Origin: a virus
Taxonomy: Duplodnaviria > Heunggongvirae > Uroviricota > Caudoviricetes
Strand: one strand, 5' to 3'
Length of the DNA stretch: 40,734 nt
IMG/VR virus record: IMGVR_UViG_3300049203_000077
Location: 64,001 to 104,734 of that record
In this document: piece after piece, positions 5,701 through 25,237 of the stretch
Numbering within the stretch: position 1 is the first letter of the stretch
How the letters are laid out: each line of letters opens with the position of its first letter
Notes under the pieces: model-generated
What the model was told of the DNA's origin: nothing
The model's input: the letters and a program-made list of their open reading frames with translations, nothing else
The model's database searches: none
Program-made: the position numbers and the translations under genes

Positions 5701-8700
5701 GTTAAAGTAGAGGATTATGAAAAAATTAGAACTCAGTCAAAAAGGCACTACTACCTTCACAAAGACACCATAAAGGCTGGTAGAGAGTTCCTAGAAGAAT
5801 ATAACAAAAGACCTTCTACAATATCTAATTTAGTATCTGAGATTGAGAAGAAAAGGAAGGACGCGTTACAAGGTATTAAATTATCGGATGTACAGGTTGG
5901 AGATAAACTACAAGTTTCTTCAAACTTGTCCGGAGGATTTAAAAATAAAGATGTTGTAGTTACTAGAAGATCAAAACTGGGAGTTCAATTTGATAACGAA
6001 AACGTATGGTATAACTTTAAAAATTCTACACTTTCTATAGTTAATTTTAAAAACTATAGTCAAGAAGAAAGAATTAACGCTAAATATGATGCAGAGTTAG
6101 CTGTACTAAGAGGGGGAGCTTCTCAAGAAAGCAATGAAAATCAAGGTGGTGCGCCTCCTATCACTCCTAATGATCCACCTCCTACTACAGGAACAGGAGG
6201 ACTTAGGACTGATGACTTCATGGCAAAAGTATTTGTTCCGGGAGATTTAAAACTCTCGTTTAACAATGCTATATTCTCAGGAACTAGGGATCAAGTTAAG
6301 ACTGGAATGAGTATTCGTGTAAGACCACTGGAGCCTCAATTCCAGCAGCAATTTGATCAACAATCTGCTACAAGATCATATACACAAATGACTGGATTTC
6401 CAGGAGTATATGTGTCTAAAGCACCTGTTGATATTTCTGTTTCACACTTTAATGGTATCGAAGTGAATGAAATAGGTAAAGTAGCCTATCCAAAGAGACT
6501 TTTGTTTAGAGTAGGTAATGACTTTGTTAACATTGACAGGCTTACTCCTGAGCAATATCAACATTTCACTGGCAGGCCAGCAGCTCAACATGCTGCTGAT
6601 GTAGAAGAATATAACAAACAAGTAGCTTTTACAAACTACTTAGCTTTAAGATTTAGAAATAACAATCTACAAGAAATTACTCTCACTCCACAAGAGATTA
6701 ATGAGCTTCTTGATATTGTTATTACTTATGGAGAGTTGGACCTTATACCAGTTGGCCAAGAAAGACCATTATATAATCAGCTAAGACGCAACACTGTATC
6801 TCTTCCTATCTCAACAGGGGGAACATTAAATACAATGGTGATACTGTCTGCTCCTAAACGTCAGATGGATGAAGATGGTGTAATGGTTCGTGAAAGAATA
6901 GGAAGTATCAATCCTATCTATGGACAAAATTTCTATGATAATTCAAGTGCAGATGATAGTGTTATTTTAGATTTTATCAGTAATTCGGCTGACAGTATTA
7001 TTAAAGTGAATTCTCGTTACATAGGACTAGTATCTAAACCAGATGGTAGTTTTTCTCTTATTGCTCTACGTCCAGCAGAAATGGACACTGCTGCTAAAAC
7101 AAGTTTACTCCAAACTCTTATAGATAGATCAACAGAGTCTCTTAGGACAAACTTTGTTCCTTCTACAAAGGAGGAGTCTCCTAAGAATGTATTATTAATA
7201 GGTAATGATGAGGTTTACTATAAACTTCCAAGTGACGCTGCTAAAGACTATAATAAAGATTTCAATGACAATATAAATAATCAAGTGTTTATTTCAGATC
7301 CTAATGGTAAAGTGTGGTTTGAAATTACACTTAGTCCAATTGGAGCTCTTCGCTTGGATATTCATGAACCTAATTCTGGATATAGAAATCGTCTTATTGT
7401 TGCTCCTCAAAAGGTTGGAAAACTTGATTCTTTCCAAGCAATGATTGATGCATTTAATAATGAATTAGTAAAGAAAGAAAAAGATGATGAAACTCTCAGA
7501 GGACTAGCAATAAGACTAAACAGTAGTAACTTTAGGCAAAACATAGCTGATGATAGTAATATTCCTAATGCTGAAGCATTGGCTTCTCAACTAACTGCTG
7601 CTACATCTACAGAGGTATTTAAGAACGGAACAATGAAACTTGTTCCTGATACTGGAAATGTAGCATCAGCTTATAAAAATGCAAGAGGTAGCACACAACA
7701 GGCTACTCCTGAACAAACAGCTCAAGAACAGCCTCCTGTTGCTCCTGAAACTCCAGCTACTCCAGCAATGCCTCAAGGGCTTACTTCTCTTACAGAGCAA
7801 CAACCTCAGGAGTATGGTACACTAGAAGATGTGTTTGGTCCCCAGATTCCTACTGGAATGTTTCAAGGTATGACAGGAGTTCCTGTAGATGAATCAGGAA
7901 ATCCTATTGCACCTATAGAGACTGCTCCTCAAAATCAAGAGGAAGCACAAGGAATTGTTTATACATCTGTTAAGGAAGCATTAAATGCTAATGACATAGA
8001 CTATAGAACAGTAGAAGGTGAAACTCAGTTCTTTAATATTAGTACAGGCCAATTACTTGATCTTCCTGGAGTAGCTCCAAAGGACTTAGCTGATTCTATG
8101 GGACTTACTATTGCACCTCAACAAAGACCTCAGAGAGGTACAGGATTTGACTTTATGCGTTCTGAGCAAAATCTATCTACATTAAACAACATGGTAGATT
8201 TTGAGAATGCTAGAGTGTACATCAATTCTATTCTTCCCTCATTTATTAGTGTGGAGGACATGGATGCTGTAATGAATAAGATTAGAGAGCAAGGAATTGA
8301 AAATCCTGAGAAAAATGTTTGGGGAGCTTTCAAGGATGGGATCATCTATCTTAATAAGCAAGCTCCATCAGCAGGACAAGAGTATCATGAAGCATTCCAT
8401 GCTGTATTTAATTCATTCATTCCTCAAGAAGAACAAAAGTCTCTTCTTAACTATGCTAATGATGAGCTTTACAAAAAGCTTAAGAAAGAAGGAAAATCTA
8501 TTAGAGAATATATTAATGAACAGCGTAAACAAGGAGTATGGACAAATATTTCTGATACCCATGCAGCTAATAAAGCAGCTGAAGAATGGATGGCAGAAAA
8601 GTTTCGCTCATGGAAAAATAAAAAAAAGAACGCAGGTATTCTTCAAAGACTATTTGATTTAATTGATAGATTTTTTAGATGGATAACTAGAAATCAAAAT

Positions 8701-11700
8701 GATCTTAATGCCCTATTCCACAAAATAGATACAGGAGGGTATAAATATTCTAATATAGCTGCTAACTCCTTCACTCAAGAGACAACTGAAGACACTAATA
8801 TTCAGGAGTTTAAATTCATGCTTGTTCCTGCTCGTCCTACGCAAATGGCAGTCGGTAGAGGAACTATTGAAGTAAAGAGAAATCTTGATGCTAAGACATC
8901 TACACAAGTGATTCAAAATGTAGCTGCTTACTTTGAGATGTACAAGAGAATGGGAGAGTACCAGCTGTCTGATGAAAAGTTATTAGACCAAATATTGGAC
9001 GACCTAAAAACTACATACAGCGCAGATAATCCTCTTTATGAAGGAATGACTCAAGAGCAATTAAATATAATAGCTAACTCTGACGAAAACTATATTTATT
9101 CAAATGACGAGACAAGAGCTATTATAAAAGAAGGTGCTAAAGAGTACATTAATTCAATGAATTATTTTGAACAATTCCAGTCTGAGGAACTTGAAGATCA
9201 AGAACAGGATACAGGTGCACCAAGAACTGGATATGATAATAGCTCTGAGAATATTGGAGGATTTAGCTCTCTTCCAGGAATGGTTCGTCATTACTTAGGG
9301 TTTACATCTTATCCTGTAACTAATAGATTTGGTCAATCTACATTAGCTAATGGTAAGCCCGTAATAGCTACAATTGATGCTGTATCAGTTTACTATGGAT
9401 TACTACGTGCTACAGCTAATATCAATGATCCTGTCAGATTCTTTCAGAGAATGATACGCTTTGCTGATAACAATGAGCAGAGTCGTCACTTTGTTAAGAA
9501 ATTCCTCGTTGATACAGGACTTAACGAAGACGCATTAAATGAAGGTAGAATTGAGGCTACCAGAAATAAAGCCTTAGTTGAGCAGGTAAGAAAAGCATTT
9601 AATAAGTATCGTATTGATTATATATTTACAGAGTATGACATGAAGAAGGGTAAATATCGCTCTTATCATGCAAATCGTAGAAATGTAGAAAATGTACAAT
9701 TCGATAAATGGTCTAATGTATTTATTGATGGATACTCTGAGATGAGTGCTGACCAGCAGGCTACTATACGCAGAACTATTGATAACATAAGAAACAGATA
9801 CTTTGATCCAAGAAGGGCTACAAAGAGAACAGCTGATGAAATCAATGTGATAGTTACTGAAGTAAGGAATGCTCTACTTTCAGTAGGTATGCAACTGTCA
9901 TTCGACTATATAAGATATTCATTATTAAGTATTAATGCTAAAAGATTTGATACTCTAAATAAAGAATATAAAGCTCAGGGAGCAGAATTACAGGTTGATG
10001 ATCCACAAAACACATTTATTTCTAAAGCTGATTATAACTATGTTCAGGTAATGAAGATTGCTGATGAAGTTACTTTGAGTAAAGAGTTTATGGATGAGCT
10101 TTCTAGGTCTTTATCAGCTAATGAGAACCCTTATTTTCGTGTATTAAGAGAAGGTGAAGATATTGATGAGGAAGAAGAAAAGTCAAAGGGTGGTATGGTG
10201 ACACGTATCTCAAATGTCGCTAAGGGTAATGCTTTATTTGATGAAACTGTAGGTGAGTCTTCTTATATGAATGCTGATGATAAATTAGTATTTGCTCACC
10301 AAGATGGTACATTTAATGTTAAGGCCTCTTATGCACTTAGAGATGCTGAAACCAGAAGAAGACTTAGAGAGACTGGTATAAGAAATGAGGCTTCTGCAGC
10401 TACAGATTCCTACGATTCTGCATGGTTAACAGATAACTACTTGTTAAACTCTGCTTCATTTGAAGCAGTAGCAGATAATCTATTGTTTCAGAATATAGAT
10501 GGTATTCGTGCTGTAGAAACAAATAAAGAAGGTAAAGTAATTACAGAGGAGTTTAGAGACCAAAAAGAAGGTGTTACCTATGGTTCTTATTCTCCTAGAG
10601 AATTCTTTATTAACCTTACAAATATGTATATCTCTTATGCTAAAGTTCAGAAGACAGCAGCAGGAGATGTTATTACTACTCCTCATCTAATTCGTGTACT
10701 TGAAGCTTCTAAAACAGCTAACACTGTAAACCTACCTATCAACTTAGATGTTTATAGAGAAGGTACAGTAACAGAGAAAACTGCAGATATTCTTTTTAAG
10801 GAGGTGCAAAAAGAGTTCAACAGAATAAAAAGAGTGCAGGGTGAAGTAGGAACTTTAACAGATAGTATAGTGGAAAATTATCATACAGGTAGTTTTGAAG
10901 ATGATGGATTTACTGTAAGAAAGGGTTATCGTGGCCTGAAGTTTACAGATAACATGACTTCCTTATTGACTAAATCTACAGCTAATCTACTTGAAAGGAA
11001 AGCTCGTACAAACCTAGAACTATCTCAAGAAGATGTTGCTACTATTAAACAAGAGATTAAAAACTCTTTAAATAAGATGGTAGATGACGCTATTGATCTG
11101 ATGGTAGCTGAAGGTATTATTAAGATAGGACCTAAAGGTTCTTATCAAAACGTACTTCTTCATCGCGAGTTCTTTGTTCAAGGTAAAGATAGTTTAGGAC
11201 TGAACTTACAAAGTGTTGATAAAGGAGTAAAATTTAAAACGAATATAGGACATGTTCTCATAAATGACTACATTAATACATTAGCGTATAATCAGATTCT
11301 TCATGGTGATCCTGCGTTATCGCTAAAGAATGACGGTGGTATTGATGCTGTAAAACGTGCCAAGGGTGACAATGCTGCAATCACTTCTATTAGAACTGAT
11401 TTGACAGCTCCAGAGCTTGGAATTACTGAAGCATTTACACATTCAAGTGTAGCTATTTTTAAGGAACCTGTTGCTCCAGATGGAACAAAGGTAGCCGATG
11501 CTCAAATGTATGCTACTGTACGTGCTCTTCGTTATACATTATGGGGACTTGGTAGACTTTCTCCACGTTTAGCTAGATTTTTAGACGCCTTAGAAAGAGG
11601 AGATGATATTCACAACTTAACAGATTCAAATGGTGAAACTTATGATGGAGTGTTTGATGATAGTAAAGGCATCTTAAGATGGGATGAAATGACTAACTCT

Positions 11701-14055
11701 TTAAAACTCGTATTTAAAGATGGTAAGACATACTACAAAATGTCTGTAGTTATTCTTCAACCAAATCTTACTGCTAGAAGGAATGAGCAAGGTGAGTGGA
11801 TAACTCGTCCGGGATGGGAAACCCTCGATAGTCTTAGAAGAAAGATGGAGAAAGACAGAATACATTTTGCTGCTCCAGAATCAGCTTCTAAAATGATGAC
11901 TTTAGATGTATCTAAAGCTGAAGACTTCTCAGACTTAAAAGGACATTTAGTTGATAATCAGTATTTTGGACTACAAACAGAAAATCCTTCTAATAAGCTT
12001 GAAATTACTACACCTACTCAGTTATTACAATTGATTGATTCTGAGCAAGATGATAGTGTAGAAGTAGTGTTCCAAGGCACAAGAACTAGTGTTGGAGAAG
12101 TTAAGAGAATTTATCAAGAGTCTGTAGCTCAGAAAGTAGTAAACTCTTATGATACAGCTCTTAATGAAATATACGATATTACAGAGTTTAATGAAGATAT
12201 GGATACTTTGATTGTTAATGGTCATGTAACTCCTCGTCTTGCTAAATTCTATCAGCGTATATCTTCTACATTAGAGTCATCAGGTAGTGATGCGCAATTA
12301 TTAGACTTCTTCTCATTAGATGAGAATGGAAATATTAGGTTTAACGCTAACCTATCAGCAATTAAAACTAAATCTCAACAGCTTTATCTGTCATACTTTT
12401 CTAAAGGAGTTCTTTCTCAGAAGAATCCTGGTTATACTGTAGCTCTGTTCTCAGGTATTGATACTAAAACTTCTAGAATAGCTAAAAGGGTTGAGAATGG
12501 AGTTGTTACAGAATGGGCTTACGTTAGAAGAGATGAATGGGACGCTAACCATAATGGGGTGAGAGATCAACAGATACTTGGTTCTAAAGATCAAGTGACT
12601 GAAGAAGGGCAATTATTCTTGGATGAACTTCAATACATGGTCCCTAAATATAATTATGAGGGAGAAGTAGAAGGGTATTATTCAGAAATGATGCTTCCTG
12701 CTCATTTTAAAGAGCTTCTTGGTCTTAGACCAGGGGATGAAATTCCTGATGCTATAGCTTATATGTTTGGTGTACGTATTCCTTCTCAAGATAAACACTC
12801 ATTCATTTCTTTAAAACTAATAGACTTCTTACCAGCTAACTTAGGGTCTACAGGTATGTTCCCTAAGGAGTTGATTAAACTATCAGGTGCTGACTTTGAC
12901 ATTGATAAACTCTTTATTACTAGATATGACTTCTATCTTACTAAAGATGCAGATGGCAATCCTAAATTTAATAAATATGGTGATGCTACGAATGATAGGG
13001 GTAGATGGATGGAGTATAAGAGATGGATGTTAGAAAACAATAAGTCTCTTAAAAACACTGTAAGAGATATTCTTTTACAAGACGCTACTTATCAGGAGCT
13101 TAAAGATGAGCAGCAGGTATTAAGAGAGCTTCAGATGGAAGAAGCATTTGACGATGCTGCTAGACAATTAAAAAAGCAACTTTATGACAGAGCTGTTTCT
13201 CAAGCTTTAGCGTATCTAAAACTTCCTTCTACACTAGAGCAGTTTACAGAAGCCTCAAGAACTAAAGAACTAAATAATGGTGTTCTGAATAATAGAATAC
13301 TAGATAGTTATCGTACTCTTTTAACAAATAGGGGAATGCATGAAATTGCTGCTACACCTGCTAGCTTAACAGCTCTACAGGACATTCAGGATGAGAATGA
13401 CATTACGTTGAGAGATGCTCAAGGAAATAAAATAGGCTCTGTTTTTCAAAAGAAAACAAATTATCCAGTAGATAGTTTAATGGGTAAATTCTATGGATTT
13501 AAGAATAACACTACAGGCAAAAACAATATTGGTATTGATGTTAATGCTAACTTAATATATTCAGTAGCTAATAAAGGAGATATATCCTTAACAGACCCTG
13601 AAGAAGGATTTGAAATGGACAGTAAGAAGTTTTCTAGCTTTTCTGGAAATAGAGAATATAATTTAGAAACTGAGCAGTTTGATGGAAAACGTACAAATGA
13701 CGTTCTTTCTACATTAATTACAGCTGCTACAGATGAGGCTAAAGAACAGTTAAATGCCTTGTATAACTTAGGAGTGGATGCTCTGAAAGTAGTAAACTAC
13801 TTGGTAGCTCTTAAAGTTCCTTTAAAGACAGCCATCTACTTTGTAAACCAGCCTTCTATTCGTAACTACTTGGATATTAAGGCTGTAAAGCAAAATACAA
13901 TTCAAACTAAAGAAGAAGAGAATCTCTATAGAGATGCCTTCAGGCAAGAAGCTGTATTAAAAACTCAAAAACAAATTAAGGATTATAAGGACATGTCTGA
14001 CAGCGAGCTATTCAGCATGTTTGAGGCTAATAGTTTAGTGGAGGTAAGATGTTAA
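2707..14055 (+). CDS. Giant virion-packaged DNA-dependent RNA polymerase of crAss-like type (3782 aa) with zincin-like metallopeptidase domain
   Basis: Catalytic GADFDIDKLF (DFDID at 12892-12906, residue 3396 onward) preceded by RIPSQDKHS; HEAFH zincin motif at 8386-8400; Gly-rich hydrophobic N-terminal segment; Q/P/T-rich linkers between domains. Confidence 0.9.
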   Translation: MPQQDPIKPGQVTNLPQNNYDPNAEAGRVVNKLPYVAPPTALNLLFNSTAPTTAEGASKVNPAYALYINTLKNANGKQAFLSQPYYTPETIAGRYGDKEIGGYHPYDMNLENWYGDNQSWFNQWGNRLGKLGTKAIGSFANSLMDIPNIIAQSATGQMSLDKMWDNPTNSWATDLMEWSEKAMPNYETNWEREHPFANLIPIYGALHGGSAANSWGKAIENLGFTVGAIGGAVVEDLIVGGLTGGVGEVPLAAMQINKAVYKLGKLVNAGEDFLGALKSNIRNADDIVKGLKGIDRFNYAVRQGLWGANMITSGISEAAFEGIESYKTLSKDLQQKYFEETGKAPSFEENQKIDALARDAANSRFLLNTALLAATNSIQWGNLFRPLNATKELLEAEAKQGVRIALKEGSVDAFEAVEHTSRLAKWGKNLTDNKVSQILFGSSSEGFEEGAQYIIEKGINDFYKRKYEDKNITLTNNFLKSFGTGLAETLGTKEGWENIVQGLLGGALYKGGEHAYYKARGINNNPNYKKQIDAVIDGLNSQSLTGIFENKYGTAVEAMSIQQDLQDAAAKNNVFAYKNYKHDQFVNFVLSGIQQNKFDTRLEQLQELKKLEGSEFEKMFGIPSNTENKKTVSEYVGKLEENAKYIKEIHKRVSRTFVNPYQLKGTGNYKNAEEKKRQDEENEKHIIYEKVKNELVRLMSISKDSADRIRDMHSQITSMQTVVDPSTVIKLSSIEGIQDLKKEYKEKLKLAEESLKLAPNDAKNKRDVKWYSKKVSEIEDVTNEKDEKTQNVKYNKFLNDVFDRTQKEDNKFYKLYGTDSQKLSVDTPFPRDVIKDLTDLGKDIYYLQKRNEVAVDRYASLTTKGGFKEHFDKEATARKEANDLLVNLQQPQTQGQAAQQQAAFNASQVQQNQAPTPQPQAATTNTTAQTPSSQPPTAIPQQQGYVEELGIIKTADEERAELITYMIEAIDEKRVLSEIEAEILGFKTIDDLKFDNPSVKVEDYEKIRTQSKRHYYLHKDTIKAGREFLEEYNKRPSTISNLVSEIEKKRKDALQGIKLSDVQVGDKLQVSSNLSGGFKNKDVVVTRRSKLGVQFDNENVWYNFKNSTLSIVNFKNYSQEERINAKYDAELAVLRGGASQESNENQGGAPPITPNDPPPTTGTGGLRTDDFMAKVFVPGDLKLSFNNAIFSGTRDQVKTGMSIRVRPLEPQFQQQFDQQSATRSYTQMTGFPGVYVSKAPVDISVSHFNGIEVNEIGKVAYPKRLLFRVGNDFVNIDRLTPEQYQHFTGRPAAQHAADVEEYNKQVAFTNYLALRFRNNNLQEITLTPQEINELLDIVITYGELDLIPVGQERPLYNQLRRNTVSLPISTGGTLNTMVILSAPKRQMDEDGVMVRERIGSINPIYGQNFYDNSSADDSVILDFISNSADSIIKVNSRYIGLVSKPDGSFSLIALRPAEMDTAAKTSLLQTLIDRSTESLRTNFVPSTKEESPKNVLLIGNDEVYYKLPSDAAKDYNKDFNDNINNQVFISDPNGKVWFEITLSPIGALRLDIHEPNSGYRNRLIVAPQKVGKLDSFQAMIDAFNNELVKKEKDDETLRGLAIRLNSSNFRQNIADDSNIPNAEALASQLTAATSTEVFKNGTMKLVPDTGNVASAYKNARGSTQQATPEQTAQEQPPVAPETPATPAMPQGLTSLTEQQPQEYGTLEDVFGPQIPTGMFQGMTGVPVDESGNPIAPIETAPQNQEEAQGIVYTSVKEALNANDIDYRTVEGETQFFNISTGQLLDLPGVAPKDLADSMGLTIAPQQRPQRGTGFDFMRSEQNLSTLNNMVDFENARVYINSILPSFISVEDMDAVMNKIREQGIENPEKNVWGAFKDGIIYLNKQAPSAGQEYHEAFHAVFNSFIPQEEQKSLLNYANDELYKKLKKEGKSIREYINEQRKQGVWTNISDTHAANKAAEEWMAEKFRSWKNKKKNAGILQRLFDLIDRFFRWITRNQNDLNALFHKIDTGGYKYSNIAANSFTQETTEDTNIQEFKFMLVPARPTQMAVGRGTIEVKRNLDAKTSTQVIQNVAAYFEMYKRMGEYQLSDEKLLDQILDDLKTTYSADNPLYEGMTQEQLNIIANSDENYIYSNDETRAIIKEGAKEYINSMNYFEQFQSEELEDQEQDTGAPRTGYDNSSENIGGFSSLPGMVRHYLGFTSYPVTNRFGQSTLANGKPVIATIDAVSVYYGLLRATANINDPVRFFQRMIRFADNNEQSRHFVKKFLVDTGLNEDALNEGRIEATRNKALVEQVRKAFNKYRIDYIFTEYDMKKGKYRSYHANRRNVENVQFDKWSNVFIDGYSEMSADQQATIRRTIDNIRNRYFDPRRATKRTADEINVIVTEVRNALLSVGMQLSFDYIRYSLLSINAKRFDTLNKEYKAQGAELQVDDPQNTFISKADYNYVQVMKIADEVTLSKEFMDELSRSLSANENPYFRVLREGEDIDEEEEKSKGGMVTRISNVAKGNALFDETVGESSYMNADDKLVFAHQDGTFNVKASYALRDAETRRRLRETGIRNEASAATDSYDSAWLTDNYLLNSASFEAVADNLLFQNIDGIRAVETNKEGKVITEEFRDQKEGVTYGSYSPREFFINLTNMYISYAKVQKTAAGDVITTPHLIRVLEASKTANTVNLPINLDVYREGTVTEKTADILFKEVQKEFNRIKRVQGEVGTLTDSIVENYHTGSFEDDGFTVRKGYRGLKFTDNMTSLLTKSTANLLERKARTNLELSQEDVATIKQEIKNSLNKMVDDAIDLMVAEGIIKIGPKGSYQNVLLHREFFVQGKDSLGLNLQSVDKGVKFKTNIGHVLINDYINTLAYNQILHGDPALSLKNDGGIDAVKRAKGDNAAITSIRTDLTAPELGITEAFTHSSVAIFKEPVAPDGTKVADAQMYATVRALRYTLWGLGRLSPRLARFLDALERGDDIHNLTDSNGETYDGVFDDSKGILRWDEMTNSLKLVFKDGKTYYKMSVVILQPNLTARRNEQGEWITRPGWETLDSLRRKMEKDRIHFAAPESASKMMTLDVSKAEDFSDLKGHLVDNQYFGLQTENPSNKLEITTPTQLLQLIDSEQDDSVEVVFQGTRTSVGEVKRIYQESVAQKVVNSYDTALNEIYDITEFNEDMDTLIVNGHVTPRLAKFYQRISSTLESSGSDAQLLDFFSLDENGNIRFNANLSAIKTKSQQLYLSYFSKGVLSQKNPGYTVALFSGIDTKTSRIAKRVENGVVTEWAYVRRDEWDANHNGVRDQQILGSKDQVTEEGQLFLDELQYMVPKYNYEGEVEGYYSEMMLPAHFKELLGLRPGDEIPDAIAYMFGVRIPSQDKHSFISLKLIDFLPANLGSTGMFPKELIKLSGADFDIDKLFITRYDFYLTKDADGNPKFNKYGDATNDRGRWMEYKRWMLENNKSLKNTVRDILLQDATYQELKDEQQVLRELQMEEAFDDAARQLKKQLYDRAVSQALAYLKLPSTLEQFTEASRTKELNNGVLNNRILDSYRTLLTNRGMHEIAATPASLTALQDIQDENDITLRDAQGNKIGSVFQKKTNYPVDSLMGKFYGFKNNTTGKNNIGIDVNANLIYSVANKGDISLTDPEEGFEMDSKKFSSFSGNREYNLETEQFDGKRTNDVLSTLITAATDEAKEQLNALYNLGVDALKVVNYLVALKVPLKTAIYFVNQPSIRNYLDIKAVKQNTIQTKEEENLYRDAFRQEAVLKTQKQIKDYKDMSDSELFSMFEANSLVEVRC

Positions 14056-14074
14056 CAATAATCATCACTTCCAC

Positions 14075-14116
14075 TTACCTTCATAAAAAAGTGTAATTAA
14101 ATTAGTATATTTGCTT
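14075..14116 (+). promoter_or_regulatory. Internal promoter (TATATTTG at 14106-14113), near-copy of the 155-197 promoter
   Basis: 37 of 43 positions identical to 155-197 by manual alignment; ATG is 5 nt after the box. Confidence 0.7.
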
Positions 14117-14117
14117 T

Positions 14118-16697
14118 ATGGCTTGTACTTATGTCGTAAAAAATAGTGCTGGAGAGGAAATCTCATTTAATAGTCAAGGGGAAGCTCTTCAATATCTCAA
14201 GGATAATAATATAGCTGAGTCTAGCGTTAAAGGAGAACCTGCACGTAACACTGCTACGTTAGCTAATGTGTTACGTCAAGTAGCTTTTGGAGAAAATAAT
14301 TATTCTCCTGAACAACTGCGTGTCTTCCAAGAACAAATGTTGGATGAGTTTATAAGAATGGAAGAACAATCTCAGTTCTTCTATAAGATGGGTAGTCCCA
14401 TTGCCCTTACAAAAGGTTTGGGAAAGAGCTTTGATCAGATGGCAGGAGTTGTTAAAAATCTTACTGATCTTGGTATTGGACTTCCTGCTGATACTGAAAT
14501 AGATGCTCCGTTTGATGTGCGATATCTTCTTTCAGGAGAAGACAGATATAGATCTGCTGATCAAAATCCTTATTATCATAAGATTACTGCGAATAACATT
14601 AAGATAATGAAGGATGTTTATTCTTTGAGTAAGACAATGTTTATGGAGCAAGCTCCTTCCTTTATGAATATATCAGATAGAGTGATATCAAATCTTAAAG
14701 GAGGTCTGGCTGATGACATTGATAAAGTGAGAGAGATTAAAGATGATTTGGCAGCCTTCTTACAAATAGCTGCTTACAAACAGTGGATAGACGTAAATGA
14801 TAAGAAAACAAGTACATTACATAACAGTCTTATTTATGATACTGAAGGAACTACTTCTACTGTTGTAGATATTGTTAAAGAAGCTATTGCACTCTCTCCT
14901 GATAATACTTTCTTAAAATTTATTCTCCCTGTAAGCACCACTGTAAAAATAGGAAAAAGAAAGGTAAGAAACATAAATAATAAGGATATTATTAATACTA
15001 TCGAAGGTAAAACTCGTGGTAAAATAGAACCAGACCTTATTGCTAACATGATGGACTCATTCTCAGAACTTTATCTAAATCCTAGAACTCAATATCATGC
15101 TAAAGCACTATTTGATTACCTTATAGTGAAAGATGGTTTGATGTATAGAAATAAGTCGTTTATTAAAATGATTCCTACATTCATGTTCAAGGAGATGTCT
15201 AATGCTACTGATCTAGCTACAGAACTTCTCTCCCTTTCTCAAAGAGCTGAATTTAGTAGGTTTCTTAGAAAGATAGACACTCTGGAAATAGTAGATTCTG
15301 AAGGAAACTATAGAAGCTATTTCTCAGATGCTGATAGACAGCAATTCAATGATCTGTTTAGAAATAATGACCTTTTAGGTATAAAAAATAAATTATATGA
15401 AAAAGTTTTTGGTCTTAACTACAATCAACTTTATAATAGGTTTGAACAGATTTATGCTACAGATGCCCGGTATCAGTTTAATTTGGAGCTAATTAGGACT
15501 AAGGTAAAACCTGCGACAGGTCCAGCAAGGACGGCTAACGGTATAGCCTTTGCGGAGGATGCTGGAGTTCGTTATTTACACGTAGGTATGTTTACTGAGA
15601 AATTTAGAGCTACAGAAGAAGGTAGTGAAGAAAGATCTAAAGTGTTTAGGGAAACAATGGAAGATCTTGCTGCGGCTGGATTTAACAGTGTAAAAGTTGG
15701 GGAAGATAAAACAAATCTTCAATTTAAGAAATTTATTCGTATAAGAAGAAGTGCAGGAACATCACCTACAGGGGAACAAAAAATTGTATATGTTACGTAT
15801 CAACTTGTAAATGTTGAAAGACAAGGAGCAAATAATAGAACACAAGCTTTCTCAGGAGCAGCTATGACTGCAGAAGGTGAGTCTATTCCTAGAGGTGTTT
15901 ATGCTGTTTATGCTCCTGTAGATATTGTAGGTACATCAAACTCTACAGGCGTAGCTAATTTAGGACCGCGTCCTACAAAAGAACAAGTGATTCAAACTCT
16001 CAATAATAAGTTAAGAGGTGGTGGACAAAATCCTCCAGCAGCACCTACTACTGAGCCTTCTGGTCCTACTGGTGGTACACCTATAAGCGGTGGAACCTAT
16101 TCAGGACAAATAACTTCTCTTAGTGAGAATCAAGTATTTGTGTTTGGTTCTAATCCACTAGGTGTAAATGGAAATCCTGATAAAGGAACTGGTGGAGCAG
16201 CTCTTTCAGCTCTTAAAAATGGATGGGTGAAACAAGGTGAGAAAATGGACAATAAGGTGTCTGATTCTGGGAAGGCTTATGGTTTAACAACCGTAACTGC
16301 TCCCGGAACTAAAAGAAGTATGACTGCTGAACAGATAACAAGCGGCATTGAGAAACTCTACAAACTTGCTTATGGTAACCCTCAGAAACAATTCCTTATA
16401 GCTTATATGGGTAAGACAGGAAATAATCTGAATGGGTATTCTAACCAAGAGCTTGCAGATATGTTCTCAGCATTTGTTATTCCACCAAATATTATTTTTG
16501 AGAAAGACTTTAATACACTAATTACTAGAAAGACTCCTACTTCTAAAACAGAATCAACAGGAATAGTACAAGGAGGTATATTTGGAGGAATGCAACAAAT
16601 GCCTTTTGATCCTAATGATCTTTCAGGATTTGATGCAGGTTTTTTTACTGATAGTAGTAGTATTGATGACACATTAGACAAACTAGATGACTGTTAA
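14118..16697 (+). CDS. Virion cargo protein (859 aa): probable split-off C-terminal part of the vRNAP plus a C-terminal macro-like (FVFGSN / A1S_2505-type) domain
   Basis: Follows an RNAP ORF that ends only about 386 aa after DFDID; G/P/T linker, then QVFVFGSN...GTGGAA...KAYGLTT...PQKQFLIAY...GYSNQELADMF (16110-16526). Confidence 0.7.
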   Translation: MACTYVVKNSAGEEISFNSQGEALQYLKDNNIAESSVKGEPARNTATLANVLRQVAFGENNYSPEQLRVFQEQMLDEFIRMEEQSQFFYKMGSPIALTKGLGKSFDQMAGVVKNLTDLGIGLPADTEIDAPFDVRYLLSGEDRYRSADQNPYYHKITANNIKIMKDVYSLSKTMFMEQAPSFMNISDRVISNLKGGLADDIDKVREIKDDLAAFLQIAAYKQWIDVNDKKTSTLHNSLIYDTEGTTSTVVDIVKEAIALSPDNTFLKFILPVSTTVKIGKRKVRNINNKDIINTIEGKTRGKIEPDLIANMMDSFSELYLNPRTQYHAKALFDYLIVKDGLMYRNKSFIKMIPTFMFKEMSNATDLATELLSLSQRAEFSRFLRKIDTLEIVDSEGNYRSYFSDADRQQFNDLFRNNDLLGIKNKLYEKVFGLNYNQLYNRFEQIYATDARYQFNLELIRTKVKPATGPARTANGIAFAEDAGVRYLHVGMFTEKFRATEEGSEERSKVFRETMEDLAAAGFNSVKVGEDKTNLQFKKFIRIRRSAGTSPTGEQKIVYVTYQLVNVERQGANNRTQAFSGAAMTAEGESIPRGVYAVYAPVDIVGTSNSTGVANLGPRPTKEQVIQTLNNKLRGGGQNPPAAPTTEPSGPTGGTPISGGTYSGQITSLSENQVFVFGSNPLGVNGNPDKGTGGAALSALKNGWVKQGEKMDNKVSDSGKAYGLTTVTAPGTKRSMTAEQITSGIEKLYKLAYGNPQKQFLIAYMGKTGNNLNGYSNQELADMFSAFVIPPNIIFEKDFNTLITRKTPTSKTESTGIVQGGIFGGMQQMPFDPNDLSGFDAGFFTDSSSIDDTLDKLDDC

Positions 16698-16699: not shown

Positions 16700-19600
16700 A
16701 TGAAATGTAGCGTAATAAGAAATAGTAATAATGAAATTCAACAAGTATTGGCTTCAAATGGTGAGGAGTCAATACTTTTTAATATCCTTGATAGAGTATT
16801 GAATGATAAGGAAAAGGCTCTAAGACTATGGGCTACCACTTATACTCCTGACTTCAAGAAGAAATTCAAAGGAGAACGAGATGAGAATGGCGAACCTCTT
16901 TTAAGAGAGATTTCCTCTATGGTTGAAATGGATAATCCTAATGCTAGTGACAGCATCTATTTTCAGAAAGGAGATAACTCTTCATTTGAACTATTCGGAA
17001 AGATTCAAACAATTGCTCAGAAGCTAAATAACAGATTCAATATTCCCTATAGTATTATTAATGATCCCAGCAATCCTAATAGAGGATGGTTTGGGGTTAA
17101 TGGTGTGGTTATTAATTTAGCTCATGCTAAGAAAGATACAGTGTTTCATGAATATTTACACCCATTTATTCTAGCTGTACAACAGCAGAATCCCTTTCTT
17201 TATAAAGACTTATTAGTTCAACTTAGCAGTGATTTAGAAGGAATTAAAGTAATAGGTGAAGTAACTAGAAAATATCCTGAGCTTACTAAAGAGCAACAAA
17301 TGAATGAAGCTTTAGTAGAGTATTTAGGAAAACTATCAGCTCAAAAATATAACACTCCAAAATCTCCTTTTAATCGTTTTATTAACTGGTTAAAATCTTT
17401 ATTTAAGAAGATACAAATTGATCCTAAGAACTTTAGGATTGATATGACTCTTGATGAAGTTGCTGATTTAATAGTAGATGATATTTATGTAGCCGACTTA
17501 CGAGCTATTCTTCAAGATGCTAAGATACAAACGGTATATCAAAAGCCTGACACAGACTTAACATATGAGTCTGTTTATCAAAGAATTAAAGATAAAGTAT
17601 CTATCCTAAACAGAACAATTAAGAATAGAAAGAAAGGTGACCAATTTAAGGAAGATATTAGTGTGCTTAATGAAATCATCCAAAATCAGGATGAGATAAC
17701 GTCTATAAATAACTTTATATCAAACTCAATATACTATATTGACGCAGCTAAGAAAAGATTTGAGACTTTAAGAGATTCTGTAAGAAAAGCTGATCAGCTA
17801 ACAAAGGATCAACTTTCTTATAATTTGAATATTCTTGGTGAAATTCAGCAGCTTTTGAACGTATACAACTCATTAGATAGTGTCAAATCTCTTTTGTTTA
17901 GGGAGGGTATTGGATACGACAATCCAAGATTTCAAGAACTTGCTACAGCTATAGATCAAAAAAATCAGATTATTGAGGATTTTAAATCATTCAGCCTCAC
18001 CTATCTAACAGAATGGTTATTTCCATATCTTGAGCCTACAAATAGAAACTTAGAAGCTCAAGGCAAACAAAACATGATGATTACTAAAGATCAATTCAGA
18101 GAGCAATTAGTAATGGCTTTAAGAGATATTTCTGCTGCTGGATATTGGTTAGGTACAACTATCAATAGTCGTGATCCTGTATCTGCTGCCGTAGGATTGG
18201 CTCTTAAAGATGTGGTGTATGATAATCATCTAAAAGACCTTGATACAAAGAAAGAGCTTACAAATGAATATGAAAGGGCAAGAGGTTCAGCTCTTTACAA
18301 AAGCTCCAAAGACGAAGAGACTTTTAACAAAGAGTTCTTAAGAGAAGTTGAAGTATGGGAGAAAGTGGGAGTTGATCCTGAAACAGGTGAAGATAAATAT
18401 GATTACAGAAGACGTTTAGCCTTTTATCAAGAGTACCAACTGGATCAATTTGACAAGGCCAAGAAAGAATTTTATAGACAACTTGGGCCTAAACCTACTA
18501 ACGATGCAAAAGCTTTAAGAGCTTGGAACAAAGCCCAAAGTGAATGGTATGCTCAGAATACACAAATTCACCCTGATTATCAAAGAATTATAAGTGAGAA
18601 AAGAAGAACTCTTACTAAGAGACAATTTGAAGAGTGGTGGTTAACAAATACTAAAGAGATAGATGAATTGGATTATGGATATGGTAGAAAACTCTCTCAT
18701 TATTATGGAAGAAGAGTATTACAGAACTCTTTTAACCCAACAAAAGGAACATTTCGTGCTCTTTCCGGTGAGCTTATTAGGCCTGCGGAAAAATACAAGG
18801 ATAGGAAGTTTTCTACTCTTATGAATAATGCTTATTATAGGAAACTCTATAATTCTTATAAAGAAGCTAATGACAAACTTGGAAGTTTTGGACTTAAATA
18901 TGGTATTATTCCACAGCTATCTAAAGGACAAAATGCTTTTTCTGATTTAGAATGGAAAGATGGAGTTAAGAAAAATCTAGGGAAAGCCTGGAAAGGAGTG
19001 AAGGATTCTATTACGGCTAACTTTGATGAGGAAAAAACTGTTCAAAGACAAGATGGTGCTGAGGTTAAGAAAGTGCCGGTTTACTACACAACAATGTTAA
19101 ATCCAAGTGATCTTAAACTAGATTTACTTGAAGGTGTTCTAAAGTATAGTCAGATGGCAAATAACTACTCTACTATGACTGAAATTGAGCCTAATATTAT
19201 TGTTCTTAAAACTGTACTTAATGGAGACTTTAATCTAGGTATTAAAGGTAGAGATGTAGCTAAAACAAACTCTAAGGGTATTCAAGTATTCAATGCTATT
19301 ACTAAGAAAGTGGTTCCTAAGATGGCGCGTGAAGACATGCTGAATAATCGTTTAAACGAGTTTATTAATGACATTGTTTACGGAGATGCAGAGTTTGAAC
19401 AAGCTATTAATATGGGTGGAAGAGAAGTATCTTTAAACAAGCTATCTAATAAGGTGGCACTACTTACAGCATTACAAAACATGGCGGTTAACGTAAATGG
19501 AGGTATAAGTAACGTTATTGTAGGTAACTTTAACAATACTATTGAAGCTATGGGTAGACGCTTCTATTCAGCAAAAGACTATGCTTGGGCTCAAGGAGTA

Positions 19601-20656
19601 TACGCTAGGGAGCTTCCTTCTCTAGTAGCTGAAACAGTTGGAAAGGGAGATTCTTTTCTAAACAAACTAGCAGATCACTATGATGTTCCTCAAGGTGAAT
19701 TTAAGGATCATTATGGAGAAAATGTTTCTAAGGGAACATTCAATAAATTAATGAAAACCAGCACTTTATTCTTTTTACAGAAAGGGGGTGAACATCAGAT
19801 TCAGGTGACAGGAATGCTTTCTTTAATGCACTCTGTTAAATTAACTGATTCTAAAACAGGAGAGCAAACAAGTCTTTATGCTGCTATGAAAGAGACCAAT
19901 GGAAATCTCGATGAAATGGCGTCAAAATTTGGATGGAGTGTAGAAGACGATAAAGCTTTTAGAAATAGGTTACATGCTGTTGTTAAAAATCTACAAGGTG
20001 TGTATAATAGTTTTGATAAAGCTATGTTATCAAGACGTTGGTATGGTAAACTAGCACTTATGTTTCGTAAATATCTTTTTAAAGCTATGCAGTCAAGATG
20101 GGGTGAGAAGTATGTAGATTATGAGCTTGGAACAGATGATGGTGGATATTGGAGAGAATTTATGAGTAAGTTTTATAAAGATGTTAAAGAGTATAAATGG
20201 GGAGCTATTCAAAGAATGTGGACTAAAGATGGATATGATGAGTTTCAGAAATCAGCTATTAATAAATCTTTATATGAATTTAGTGTTATCTTAGCTACAT
20301 TTGTTCTTATAGGACTTATTGGAAGTGGAGATGAGGATGACAAGTGGTTAGATAATGAAATGCAACTTCAACTTACACGGTTTAGTGCAGATATTACTCA
20401 GTATATCAATCCATCAGACTTTATTCGTGTGATTCGTAATCCTGCAGCTTCTATTAACATGATGGAAAAATGGATAAGTTGGTTTACTCAGATATTTAGT
20501 CCATTTGAAGAGTATGAAAGGGCTTCTGGCATAGCTGAAAAAGGAGATAATAAGCTGTATATTAAGACGTTAAAACTAATGCCTGTTGTTAGGCAACTCA
20601 TTAATTTTCTAACCCCGGAAGAGCAAATTAAATTCTATAAACTTACTGGTAGATAA
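16700..20656 (+). CDS. Large virion cargo/ejection protein with zincin-like HExxH domain (1318 aa)
   Basis: TVFHEYLHPF (17147-17161) followed by NEALVEYLG; C-terminal hydrophobic segment FSVILATFVLIGLIG; last gene of the giant cluster. Confidence 0.75.
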   Translation: MKCSVIRNSNNEIQQVLASNGEESILFNILDRVLNDKEKALRLWATTYTPDFKKKFKGERDENGEPLLREISSMVEMDNPNASDSIYFQKGDNSSFELFGKIQTIAQKLNNRFNIPYSIINDPSNPNRGWFGVNGVVINLAHAKKDTVFHEYLHPFILAVQQQNPFLYKDLLVQLSSDLEGIKVIGEVTRKYPELTKEQQMNEALVEYLGKLSAQKYNTPKSPFNRFINWLKSLFKKIQIDPKNFRIDMTLDEVADLIVDDIYVADLRAILQDAKIQTVYQKPDTDLTYESVYQRIKDKVSILNRTIKNRKKGDQFKEDISVLNEIIQNQDEITSINNFISNSIYYIDAAKKRFETLRDSVRKADQLTKDQLSYNLNILGEIQQLLNVYNSLDSVKSLLFREGIGYDNPRFQELATAIDQKNQIIEDFKSFSLTYLTEWLFPYLEPTNRNLEAQGKQNMMITKDQFREQLVMALRDISAAGYWLGTTINSRDPVSAAVGLALKDVVYDNHLKDLDTKKELTNEYERARGSALYKSSKDEETFNKEFLREVEVWEKVGVDPETGEDKYDYRRRLAFYQEYQLDQFDKAKKEFYRQLGPKPTNDAKALRAWNKAQSEWYAQNTQIHPDYQRIISEKRRTLTKRQFEEWWLTNTKEIDELDYGYGRKLSHYYGRRVLQNSFNPTKGTFRALSGELIRPAEKYKDRKFSTLMNNAYYRKLYNSYKEANDKLGSFGLKYGIIPQLSKGQNAFSDLEWKDGVKKNLGKAWKGVKDSITANFDEEKTVQRQDGAEVKKVPVYYTTMLNPSDLKLDLLEGVLKYSQMANNYSTMTEIEPNIIVLKTVLNGDFNLGIKGRDVAKTNSKGIQVFNAITKKVVPKMAREDMLNNRLNEFINDIVYGDAEFEQAINMGGREVSLNKLSNKVALLTALQNMAVNVNGGISNVIVGNFNNTIEAMGRRFYSAKDYAWAQGVYARELPSLVAETVGKGDSFLNKLADHYDVPQGEFKDHYGENVSKGTFNKLMKTSTLFFLQKGGEHQIQVTGMLSLMHSVKLTDSKTGEQTSLYAAMKETNGNLDEMASKFGWSVEDDKAFRNRLHAVVKNLQGVYNSFDKAMLSRRWYGKLALMFRKYLFKAMQSRWGEKYVDYELGTDDGGYWREFMSKFYKDVKEYKWGAIQRMWTKDGYDEFQKSAINKSLYEFSVILATFVLIGLIGSGDEDDKWLDNEMQLQLTRFSADITQYINPSDFIRVIRNPAASINMMEKWISWFTQIFSPFEEYERASGIAEKGDNKLYIKTLKLMPVVRQLINFLTPEEQIKFYKLTGR

Positions 20657-20798: not shown

Positions 20799-21104
20799 AT
20801 GGCTCAAGGAGATTTTCTACTTGTCTTGGATCAAATTGCGCGTAATACGCGTATTACTGCAAATACCCTCTGTGGCACTCCCTCTCTAGCTTCCATTACT
20901 GGCGGAACGGGAAATATTCCCTATGGATTTAACTCTGTTAGTATTACAGCTACAACAGTTCCTGCAACAATTACTTTCGCTGATGCAACAACTTACACTC
21001 TTAGTACAGTAGGGGAAACTCTTCCTATTTCTGCTGCTGAAGGTGGGAGGTTACCTGCATTTACTATTTCTGCTGGAGCAGTTAAGTGGATAGGTATAAA
21101 ATAA
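20799..21104 (+). CDS. Small beta-rich hypothetical protein, probably structural (101 aa)
   Basis: Thr/Ala/Gly-rich ORF in the late module, with A-rich upstream region. Confidence 0.55.
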   Translation: MAQGDFLLVLDQIARNTRITANTLCGTPSLASITGGTGNIPYGFNSVSITATTVPATITFADATTYTLSTVGETLPISAAEGGRLPAFTISAGAVKWIGIK

Positions 21105-21120
21105 TCTATCATATGTATGT

Positions 21121-21483
21121 ATGAGAAAAGGAGAGTACATTGATATGAATTTATTAGAATTTCTTAATGATCTCGGGATTGGATGGCGCTATTTACTTAA
21201 TGGGCTTATTGGGGCTATTGTTTGGTCAATCTATAAGAAACTACGATTAATAGAAGCACTTAGACAGATATTAATAGGCTCTATTGTAGCAGGATATATT
21301 ACTCCGTTAATTGCGTATAAAGAAGCAATCCCTATTGAATATATGGCAGCATTATCCTTTATCATAGGAATGATGGGAATGATTATAATTGATGGAATTT
21401 ATAAATATATAGTAGGTAAAGTTCGTGCATTTAGAAAGGGGAAAGAAATTCTAAATGAAGAATTGGAGAATTCGAAAAATTAG
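21121..21483 (+). CDS. Putative holin (2-3 TM segments, basic C-terminal tail); start may be ATG at 21145
   Basis: Hydrophobic segments LLNGLIGAIVWSI, ILIGSIVAGYI and ALSFIIGMMGMIII; basic tail; upstream of the lysozyme gene. Confidence 0.6.
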   Translation: MRKGEYIDMNLLEFLNDLGIGWRYLLNGLIGAIVWSIYKKLRLIEALRQILIGSIVAGYITPLIAYKEAIPIEYMAALSFIIGMMGMIIIDGIYKYIVGKVRAFRKGKEILNEELENSKN

Positions 21484-21493
21484 TGTATCTTTG
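21463..21493 (+). promoter_or_regulatory. Bacteroidota promoter TTG-N20-TATCTTTG
   Basis: TTG at 21463-21465, TATCTTTG at 21486-21493, ATG at 21511. Confidence 0.6.
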
Positions 21494-21510
21494 TCACTAA
21501 AATCAAAAAT

Positions 21511-21732
21511 ATGAGTATTAAATTAAGTAGAAAAGCAAAAGACATTCTGTTTGTATCTGGTCTTTTAAGCTGCCTAGTTTTAGCTGTTGGTGGATTTGGT
21601 TGGTCAGATTATGCAGATTCTAAGTTCTGGCAAGTAGCATGGAATGTACTCGGTGGTCTTGGTATCATTGGTTTCTTAGGTGGAATCAAGTGGAAATCAG
21701 ATCAGAGAGAACCTATTAAACCTGATCAATAA
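21511..21732 (+). CDS. Small two-TM membrane protein (73 aa)
   Basis: Two hydrophobic helices; stop codon overlaps the next start (TAATG). Confidence 0.65.
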   Translation: MSIKLSRKAKDILFVSGLLSCLVLAVGGFGWSDYADSKFWQVAWNVLGGLGIIGFLGGIKWKSDQREPIKPDQ

Positions 21733-22142
21733 TGTATTGGCTGGCATTCATAATATCTCTTGCATTTACACTTCTTCTGTCTGGAAAGGACGCAAGTTCT
21801 TTCCTTCTCAGAGGAGTACTGGATTCATATCAAGGAGTGACAAAATCACGTCTTGATAGGTGGCACAGAGATGGTGTTATAATGCACAGCTTATTTACAC
21901 TAGTTCTAGCCTGGGCTACAGGACTATGGGTAAGTGCTCCTATCCAAGCACTTCTAATAAGACTGGGTTTTTACGACCTATCTTTTAACAAGTGGACTTC
22001 CTTACCAACAACCTATATTGGAAACACTTCTGGTGTAGATAGAATATTTTTAAAAATATTTGGACATAATGGTGCTGTAAAGAAAAGTGCAGCATTTTTA
22101 ATAATACTATTGTTATGGGGAGTGTTAAGGATATTTTTGTAA
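21732..22142 (+). CDS. Multi-TM membrane protein of unknown function (136 aa)
   Basis: Three or four hydrophobic segments; translationally coupled to the upstream gene. Confidence 0.65.
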   Translation: MYWLAFIISLAFTLLLSGKDASSFLLRGVLDSYQGVTKSRLDRWHRDGVIMHSLFTLVLAWATGLWVSAPIQALLIRLGFYDLSFNKWTSLPTTYIGNTSGVDRIFLKIFGHNGAVKKSAAFLIILLLWGVLRIFL

Positions 22143-22924: not shown

Positions 22925-23214
22925 GGCAAATTAATAAATCACGACTAGAACTTTATGTAGAAAATTATCTGAAGACTAAGCCTCCTAGAACACTGCAAGG
23001 TCTCAATTACCTACGTAAATCTAGGGCATATATTGATTATGCTCTTTTCTATAACGAGTGTGATTACTCCGAACCTTTTCTGAATCTATACACTATTCAA
23101 GATAATCAGTTTACAAAAACTGTTTATCATATGATAAGAAATATAGGACTTAATTACTACAAAAAAAGTTTAGAAAGAACGTCGGAGTTATTAAATAAAT
23201 ACATAAACCAATGA
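22921..23214 (+). CDS. Hypothetical protein (97 aa)
   Basis: ATGA overlaps with both neighbouring genes. Confidence 0.6.
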   Translation: MRQINKSRLELYVENYLKTKPPRTLQGLNYLRKSRAYIDYALFYNECDYSEPFLNLYTIQDNQFTKTVYHMIRNIGLNYYKKSLERTSELLNKYINQ

Positions 23215-23817: not shown

Positions 23818-23829
23818 ATAATTTGATTA

Positions 23830-25215: not shown

Positions 25216-25237
25216 AACATACTGAAAGATATTAATA

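Follow-up and report, generated by a model that had tools for sequence, protein, structure and literature searches.

A putative gp66-type virion RNA polymerase of a crAss-like soil phage, encoded in two pieces that meet at a promoter-like gap

The stretch of DNA analysed here (the window; 40,734 nucleotides, nt) is the last 40.7 kb of the 104.7-kb virus record IMGVR_UViG_3300049203_000077. It originates from soil, has a G + C content of 35.7%, and comes from a crAss-like (Crassvirales-type) phage; DNA nearly identical to it is present in many metagenome runs from soil. Four genes on the plus strand form a close array (209–2704, 2707–14055, 14118–16697, and 16700–20656), with spacers of 2, 62, and 2 nt. 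The subject of this report is the 62-nt spacer and the two genes on its sides, encoding proteins of 3782 and 859 amino acids (aa). Almost certainly, the second of these genes supplies the rest of a polymerase of the type of gp66, the virion RNA polymerase of phage phi14:2 (PDB 6VR4), which is split behind its known catalytic elements. The features of this region are as follows.

2707–14055 (+): 3782-aa giant protein; a part resembling phi14:2 gp67 at the N-terminus, fused to the predicted N-terminal and catalytic part of the polymerase
12892–12906 (+): DFDID codons, residues 3396–3400 of the 3782-aa protein
13978–14052 (+): C-terminal tail ...SLVEVRC of the 3782-aa protein, residues 3758–3782; past the last residue aligned with gp66 and missing in fused homologues
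14037–14075 (+): predicted hairpin across the stop codon of the 3782-aa gene, from folding energy and shuffled sequences
14050–14052 (+): sole cysteine (Cys) of the 3782-aa protein, last codon before the stop
14056–14117 (+): intergenic gap at the split, 62 nt, from the positions of the open reading frames (ORFs)
14075–14116 (+): promoter-like element P2; -7 box TATATTTG at 14106–14113, predicted +1 at 14118, the A of the ATG
14118–16697 (+): 859-aa protein, in a frame different from that of the 3782-aa ORF
14118–14240 (+): N-terminal head MACTYVVKN... of the 859-aa protein, residues 1–41; a beta-hairpin and a helix in the model, missing in fused homologues
14124–14126 (+): Cys3 of the 859-aa protein, from the cysteine count
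14241–15986 (+): predicted C-terminal polymerase region, residues 42–623 of the 859-aa protein; structure match to gp66 1702–2112
16077–16538 (+): macrodomain-like domain, residues 654–807 of the 859-aa protein; fold match to TARG1 and DarG, match to phrog_2072
16692–16694 (+): terminal Cys859 of the 859-aa protein, from the cysteine count
16700–20656 (+): 1318-aa orthologue of phi14:2 gp65 (BLASTP), starting 2 nt past the stop codon of the 859-aa gene
16706–16708 (+): sole cysteine of the 1318-aa protein, residue 3, from the cysteine count

The first-pass annotation of this DNA had counted about 386 aa after the DFDID motif and had placed the next ORF in another frame beyond a 62-nt gap. Both statements agree with the sequence: 382 residues lie past the motif (386 from its first D), and ORFs 2707–14055 and 14118–16697 are out of frame across 14056–14117. 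When the gap is read on in the frame of the 3782-aa gene, further stop codons are met. The junction was also compared with Logan contigs of other soil metagenome runs, since an assembly artefact had been named as a possible refutation of the split. A 791-nt contig of run X4, covering 13684–14474, and a contig of run X5, covering 14038–14205, carry it with zero differences from the record; a third run (X7), which may be the source sample, covers the entire stretch. The split is not an assembly error, because independent contigs carry the identical junction. Besides such an error, recent pseudogenisation might be considered, or a recoding event or an intron by which a single chain is restored, as introns, inteins, and disrupted polymerase ORFs have been described in crAss-like phages (available text of PMC7886860). 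The probability of any of these is negligible in view of the independent contigs, the in-frame stops, the lack of a match to any Rfam family in the gap (best expectation value, E, 0.63), and the recurrence of the split, which is present in three further phage contigs and in 19 of the giant homologues listed (see below). The M-x-C start is conserved, and the gap measures 52–67 nt across four phages.

A tblastn search with the last 1282 residues of the 3782-aa protein gave matches in crAss-like phages only, including crAssphage gp44, which is annotated as ‘putative RNAP catalytic subunit fused to unknown RNAP subunit’ (RNAP, RNA polymerase). In pairwise BLASTP comparisons, residues 85–464 of the 3782-aa protein corresponded to phi14:2 gp67 44–362, residues 3355–3414 to gp66 1320–1388, and residues 693–1299 of the 1318-aa protein to gp65 737–1403 (E 3e-34). 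With a gp67-like part and the front of gp66 in the 3782-aa protein, and with the 1318-aa protein as gp65, the 859-aa gene lies at the position expected for the gp66 C-terminus. The DFDID sequence follows the rule DFDxD (x being I or V), which is given for gp66-type polymerases in the accessible part of the phi14:2 preprint (bioRxiv 10.1101/2020.03.07.982082). The figures given in the first-pass annotation for gp66, a length of 2180 aa and DFDID at residue 1361, are both correct.

Structure models were compared with 48,161 chains in an all-against-all VIA-align search. The model of residues 3001–3782 of the giant protein (predicted local distance difference test score, pLDDT, 78.0) was superimposed by its residues 1–757 (3001–3757 of the protein) on gp66 1012–1690 (6vr4_B) with a Z score of 20.0, an rmsd (root-mean-square deviation) of 3.5, 464 aligned residues, and 20% identity. 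This was the top match by far, QDE-1 being the runner-up (Z 7.5), and it places the folds of the connector, second barrel, bridge helix, and trigger loop in the 3782-aa protein. For the model of the 859-aa protein (pLDDT 73.8), residues 42–623 matched gp66 1702–2112 in the same chain (rmsd 7.0, 367 aligned), which was again the top of the 48,161 chains, with a Z score of 14.4 that lies, according to the tool’s own note, within the chance range for mostly helical models. On the gp66 structure, the two models adjoin between approximately residues 1690 and 1702. The bridge helix (1529–1559) and the trigger loop (1598–1636; available text of bioRxiv 10.1101/2020.03.07.982082) precede the split, because both end ahead of this junction. 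In the models, the split is located approximately 55–65 residues past the trigger loop, and both barrels, DFDID, the bridge helix, and the trigger loop are predicted to stay on the 3782-aa protein. Among sequence-based comparisons of the 859-aa protein, phmmer and profile searches of PDB sequences gave no useful match, and BLASTP against crAssphage gp44 gave nothing significant.

Homologues of the giant protein were sought with its residues 3100–3782 as the query. The search found 246 proteins, of which 120 were listed, and all of the latter were classed by BLASTP: 19 end at the split point of the window protein (within one residue), 101 are fused, and no other form occurs. Each of the 101 fused proteins carries the 859-aa region downstream in the same chain. 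Chains with both parts were also obtained when longer relatives of the 859-aa protein were sought. In P0042 (3540 aa), residues 1795–3750 of the 3782-aa protein align with 1235–2980 and residues 74–424 of the 859-aa protein with 3028–3359 (E 5e-27, BLASTP). P0044 behaves in the same way, with both parts in one chain; BLASTP of the 859-aa region against two fused homologues gave E values of 5e-27 and 3e-22. Both ORFs are therefore collinear with the fused chains in the alignment with unsplit homologues that the first-pass annotation had proposed as a check, and the structural match of the 859-aa protein gains further support from this collinearity. The proposal that the ORF at 14118 encodes the missing C-terminal polymerase region is thus upheld from four sides: the structure match, the collinear homologues, the gp65 neighbour, and the complex model described below, with its score of 0.79.

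The same layout of a giant ORF, a gap, an M-A-C protein, and an M-x-C protein was present in three phage contigs (L005/L011, L006/L010, and L012). Their counterparts of the 859-aa protein are 46–64% identical to it, and the gap measures 52–67 nt across these three and the window. A blastn search of 13000–15500 against the phage collection gave no close DNA relative, and a first scan of viral contigs with a single protein as the query gave no match. A quick maximum-likelihood tree was calculated from 56 rows, namely the window protein, the 19 split homologues, and 36 of the 101 fused ones (the best-scoring and seven from further down), with support from the Shimodaira–Hasegawa-like approximate likelihood-ratio test (SH-aLRT) only. 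All 20 split rows fell within one group of 22 with a support of 100. On this tree, the split appears to define a clade and to have arisen in the ancestor of that clade.

For prediction of the complex, residues 3420–3782 of the giant protein (alignment of 20 split homologues) were combined with residues 1–630 of the 859-aa protein (alignment of 33). The interface score (ipSAE) was 0.79, 0.80, and 0.79 in three runs, the best of three controls reaching 0.00; at least 62% of contacts agreed between runs, and the pLDDT of the partner was at least 74. Among solved complexes, 116 of 157 attain the mark used for this score, as do 2 of 215 mismatched pairs; these rates are approximate here because own alignments were used. 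Confident contacts connect helices 3691–3721 of the one piece with 43–96 of the other. The predicted interface also includes the tail (3777–3782) and the head (1–8); no pair of cysteines was reported in it. The two pieces are thus predicted to dock via the interface that is intramolecular in the unsplit enzyme.

Behind its polymerase region, the 859-aa protein carries a predicted macrodomain. Residues 654–807 matched TARG1 (2lgr, Z 9.1), DarG (5m3i, Z 8.4), and many other macrodomains (Z 6–8.7) in VIA-align, and the Foldseek probability for a macrodomain was 0.94–0.97. The region also matched phrog_2072 (E 3.5e-15); the Pfam search for the macrodomain gave no match at E ≤ 0.01. Homologues have cpYpsA SLOG, NADAR, or DUF7831 domains at this position. 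This replacement points to a swappable injected enzyme related to ADP-ribose or nicotinamide adenine dinucleotide (NAD), and suggests that the C-terminal piece of the polymerase serves as a carrier of such enzymes, which may act against host defence.

One could regard the 859-aa protein as separately injected cargo that delivers the macrodomain (NADAR or SLOG in relatives), with the catalytic fragment working alone. The known catalytic elements are indeed all on the 3782-aa protein, the C-terminal domain is swapped among homologues, and according to the available part of the phi14:2 preprint, gp66 has no domain of known function apart from its barrels, connector, bridge helix, and trigger loop. 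Such a role would leave unexplained the strong conservation of residues 42–623 (numerous invariant columns among 33 homologues), their collinearity with the fused forms, and their placement on the catalytic fragment in the complex model (0.79 versus 0.00). Delivery of a domain does not require a split either, because fused homologues carry effector domains too (PF25176, PF12694, and PF08719). We therefore consider separate cargo very unlikely and retain the view of the 859-aa protein as the C-terminal part of the polymerase.

Compared with their fused relatives, the split forms have extra residues at the junction, consisting of a tail (...SDSELFSMFEANSLVEVRC) and a head (MACTYVVKNSAGEEISFNSQGEALQY...). 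Measured against the summed length of tail and head, the 101 fused proteins have a shortfall at the junction (median 67 residues; range of the difference, -74 to +2), and the extras amount to about 45–70 residues. Both additions carry a cysteine at or near the new end. The 3782-aa protein contains one cysteine, its last residue; the 859-aa protein has two, residue 3 and the last one; and the 1318-aa protein has one, residue 3. An end-to-end layout, in which a C-terminal cysteine is followed by a near-N-terminal cysteine of the next protein, is therefore present here. All 19 split giants contain exactly one cysteine, located in the last two residues. Only 1 of the 101 fused proteins has a cysteine within 20 residues of the junction, and 93 have one in the last six residues, facing gp65. 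For the 859-aa protein, a set of 40 homologues of near-equal length (E ≤ 1e-131) was examined. The M-x-C start with Cys at residue 3 occurs in 37 of them, the other three starts being different or truncated, and a cysteine at or up to 5 residues from the C-terminus is found in all 40. M1, C3, and Y5 of the head are invariant among 33 aligned homologues. The contrast between 19/19 split and 1/101 fused proteins supports the first-pass claim that the new termini acquired cysteine motifs.

Judging from the positions of these residues, chances are about even that the facing cysteines tie the pieces by a disulfide in the virion. The terms cysteine and disulfide were not found in the phi14:2 preprint. 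In the accessible text of the crAss001 structure paper (PMC10172136), disulfides are named for tail and portal-vertex proteins only, and not for cargo polymerase proteins. No paper on a terminal-cysteine chain of cargo proteins was present among the literature matches listed. An origin of the head by duplication was also considered. A hidden Markov model (HMM) of the 34-residue head gave no significant match among 379 N-termini from the window genome, related loci, phi14:2, and crAssphage loci; the best E values were 0.46 and 1.3 (two gp65-type heads), 3.1 (gp66 head), and 29 (831-aa head). As a side observation, the protein that ends before P1, the counterpart of P2 introduced below (window 100–147), terminates in ...GNRLLQRK, and the corresponding ends in the relatives L008 and L009, ...NNLVEVK and ...GTKLVER, resemble the split tail ...NSLVEVRC (14020–14052) by eye; this likeness was not scored.

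The gap contains an element, P2, that has a counterpart at the upstream end of the gene array:

139–197 (+): promoter-like element P1, upstream of the 831-aa gene; -7 box TATATTTG at 187–194, predicted start near 199, leader of approximately 10 nt
209–2704 (+): 831-aa protein, the first gene 3' of P1; zero cysteines

Global alignment of 155–197 with 14075–14116 gave 37 identities in 43 columns with one gap, exactly as the first-pass annotation had reported. The P1 site is also the best match of the whole gap elsewhere in the 104.7-kb record, with a score of 62 against 30.1 ± 2.5 (maximum 38, n = 100) for shuffled sequences, which were mononucleotide shuffles and thus a weaker control than dinucleotide-preserving ones. 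No third good copy of the 23-nt core was found in the record by fuzzy search (up to 5 errors); the looser pattern TTAC[CA]-N22-33-TAT[AC]TTTG followed by ATG occurs at four sites, including P1 and P2. Both elements have the stretch TAATTAAATT in common, and there was no clear DNA similarity between them in the flanking coding sequence. Counterparts of P1 occur approximately 14 kb upstream in two related records, before a gene for 838 or 843 aa. L006, with a protein of 64% identity, agrees with the window in every one of the 29 nt that precede the ATG, and L005 and L012 keep TAATTA(A/T)AA(T)T-N-GTATATTTG, which together argue that the gap element is under selection. According to the first-pass annotation, a near-copy of the promoter had been inserted at the split. 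The similarity of the elements stands; the event itself is ancestral and clade-wide, not recent in the window genome.

The -7 box of Bacteroidota sigma-A promoters, TAnnTTTG, occupies -12 to -5 (available text of PMC9723704 and PMC7366714). This box is present at 14106–14113 and at 187–194, and the distance from its G to the ATG is 4, 4, 3, and 6 nt in the four phages. If the G at 14113 is taken as -5, the +1 position falls on 14118, the A of the ATG; the position of the start site is thus a prediction. The gap element is probably a host sigma-A promoter of the class that serves the middle genes of phi14:2, and its transcript would then begin at the A of the ATG and be a leaderless mRNA. The phi14:2 middle promoters were mapped by primer extension upstream of g070 and g110, and a host-type polymerase transcribes P070 in vitro (accessible part of bioRxiv 10.1101/2020.03.07.982082). 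By our own reading of the promoter nucleotides, TATATTTG stands 5 nt before the ATG of g070, and the distance is 4 nt at g110. The phi14:2 promoters differ in having a TTGnnT block 17 nt upstream of the -7 box; P1 and P2 are without it and share TAATTAAATT instead. TAnnTTTG boxes were also observed outside the window, at positions 58706 (+) and 6329 (-) of the record, where 2 and 4 nt separate them from the ATG codons of two long ORFs of 640 and 652 aa, so a near-leaderless geometry may be common in this phage.

The same element might, however, act on RNA. It could be a conserved translation-initiation or mRNA-processing signal on a read-through polycistronic mRNA, whose A/U-rich unstructured stretch could recruit ribosomes, while the stop-codon hairpin could stabilise or process the upstream RNA. 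To our knowledge, Bacteroidota do without Shine–Dalgarno pairing. The hairpin at 14037–14075 is an imperfect one of 12–13 bp (-14.8 kcal/mol, z -3.55; none of 200 shuffles folds as well); its 3' arm reaches the first block of the repeated element, and no U-tract follows. No terminator-like site was found on the plus strand of the gap, and P2 is without a -33 box. The element before the 831-aa gene could play the same translational role. A scan for sigma-70-type promoters gave nothing on the plus strand at the gap, the tool being one that does not cover Bacteroidota promoters. A signal of this kind would not account for the exact TAnnTTTG core 3–6 nt before the ATG in four phages, which fits the -12 to -5 geometry of sigma-A, nor for TATATTTG at g070 of phi14:2, where the mapped promoter lies. 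Moreover, relatives have only weak hairpins at the stop codon, or none (z 0.09 to -1.4). An RNA-level signal thus appears unlikely, and a promoter is the preferred reading of the gap element.

The following course of events would connect these elements. The 3782-aa protein would comprise gp67-like cargo and the polymerase to just past the trigger loop, and the 859-aa protein would add the remaining C-terminal region and the macrodomain. The ancestral split would have brought the cysteine-ended tail, the stop codon, approximately 60 nt of non-coding DNA, and the Met-x-Cys head. Host RNA polymerase would start at 14118, and the resulting leaderless mRNA would cover the 859-aa gene, the gene of gp65 type, and perhaps genes further on, so that the supply of these proteins would be independent of the ~14-kb transcript. 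The polymerase pieces would reassemble via their native interface, with tail and head within it. In the oxidised virion, the facing cysteines would join the three cargo proteins, in the order of their genes, to form a single thread, and the reducing cytoplasm would free this thread after injection.

Taken jointly, the split, the promoter, the reassembly, and the tether form the best overall explanation of the locus, to which we assign a probability of about 0.7. Several findings count against it. A fold and profile comparison with gp66, which the first-pass annotation had suggested, succeeded in part: the VIA-align match was obtained, with the reservation on its Z score given above, but hhalign of the 859-aa family profile against gp66 and gp65 returned a probability of 0.4 and no link, and Foldseek with the whole 859-aa model gave no match at E ≤ 0.001, with 6VR4 absent among the 50 matches listed. 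The complex model may have passed owing to its likeness to 6VR4, in which both pieces are one chain, and does not demonstrate binding. Neither P1 nor P2 has a -33 TTTG/TTG block 17–19 nt upstream of the -7 box; such a TTG block is seen 17–18 nt upstream in the phi14:2 promoters and at two other sites of the window genome. Leaderless mRNAs are rare in the phylum of the hosts, accounting for 5.5% in Flavobacterium psychrophilum, and leaders under 10 nt make up 3.7% in Bacteroides thetaiotaomicron (available text of PMC9723704 and PMC7366714). No RNA run was found among the sequencing runs listed with this DNA. P1, which the first-pass annotation took for the operon promoter (155–197), is promoter-like in sequence; it is preceded by co-directional genes and therefore represents an internal site of a long co-directional array, not demonstrably an operon promoter. 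Finally, the fused proteins P0062 and P0064 are nested in the split group as sister to two split proteins, so that a single clean origin is not established and at least two changes are needed (a split with a later re-fusion, or more than one split).

These two proteins (approximately 4660 aa) are 57–58% identical to the window protein over the catalytic end and carry the 859-aa region in the same order; they differ in having no stop codon, gap, tail or head residues, or junction cysteine. That exactly the tail and head residues are missing from their fused chains is compatible with a clean re-fusion. A bolder proposal is that a unit of approximately 200 nt, composed of the cysteine tail, stop codon, hairpin, leaderless-start promoter, and cysteine head, made the split and is gained or lost as a whole. 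With such a unit, a giant cargo gene would be divided into pieces that are expressed separately and joined in the virion by a disulfide, a bond that the host cytoplasm would reduce after injection, and P0062 and P0064 would represent its clean loss. We put this forward tentatively, as the odds are clearly against it.

Among the other genes of the window, the 831-aa protein had no match in the PHROG search; a weak Pfam match of its residues 527–611 to the Enolase C-terminal TIM barrel (E 2.4e-5, 24.2 bits, cut-off 21.5) is probably spurious. Downstream of the cargo block, at 20799–29335, there are a holin-like gene (21121–21483), an endolysin gene (23368–23817), and a gene for a 1365-aa tail spike with a pectate-lyase-like domain. 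An HNH endonuclease gene (38402–38812, +) lies among minus-strand genes for ribonucleotide reductase, dUTPase, thymidylate synthase, and a UvsX-like recombinase.

The closest known system is the gp67-gp66-gp65 block of phi14:2, which has the same gene order and the same DFDID, a fold match over gp66 1012–2112, and a gp65 that has an orthologue here; the window block is likewise flanked by a gp67-like part, fused N-terminally, and by the gp65 orthologue downstream. It shares the terminal-cysteine rule: gp67 has its sole cysteine at the last position, gp66 has cysteines at 3 and 2179 of 2180, and gp65 has its sole cysteine at 3. The rule also holds for crAssphage gp45/gp44 at their own boundaries. 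What differs is the boundary itself. In the window, a single chain comprises gp67 and the equivalent of approximately the first 1690 residues of gp66. A separate gene, preceded by the promoter-like gap of 62 nt, encodes the C-terminal region of gp66 together with an additional macrodomain. The boundaries in phi14:2 are tight, with a one-base overlap or 2 nt, and have no such gap. A promoter inside a polymerase block has a precedent, because gp66 homologues of other crAss-like phages frequently have motifs of this kind upstream of them (available part of bioRxiv 10.1101/2020.03.07.982082). For the proposed tether, the cryo-electron microscopy structure of cyanopodophage A4 offers a parallel in the disulfide between the ejection proteins gp27 (Cys1715, near the C-terminus) and gp26 (Cys5), which has the same end-to-end geometry (accessible text of PMC12002296). 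This phage belongs to an unrelated family, gp27 and gp26 are not halves of one enzyme, and the bond in crAss-like phages is proposed from cysteine positions. Thus, what is new here is a gp66-type polymerase with a boundary past the trigger loop and a promoter-like gap, and not a new kind of system.

Gene boundaries in the polymerase block of crAss-like phages are known to be variable; how such a boundary arises is not known. The clade described here contains split and fused forms that can be compared residue by residue and thus represents a natural experiment on the cutting and rejoining of giant cargo genes. In this case, the cut leaves the known catalytic elements on one piece and brings a putative expression signal of its own, together with a cysteine at each new end. 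This raises the questions of whether the gp66 C-terminal region acts in trans, whether cargo proteins are linked end to end by disulfides, and whether leaderless promoters set the stoichiometry of injected proteins. The locus illustrates how giant genes may be split without loss of the enzyme.

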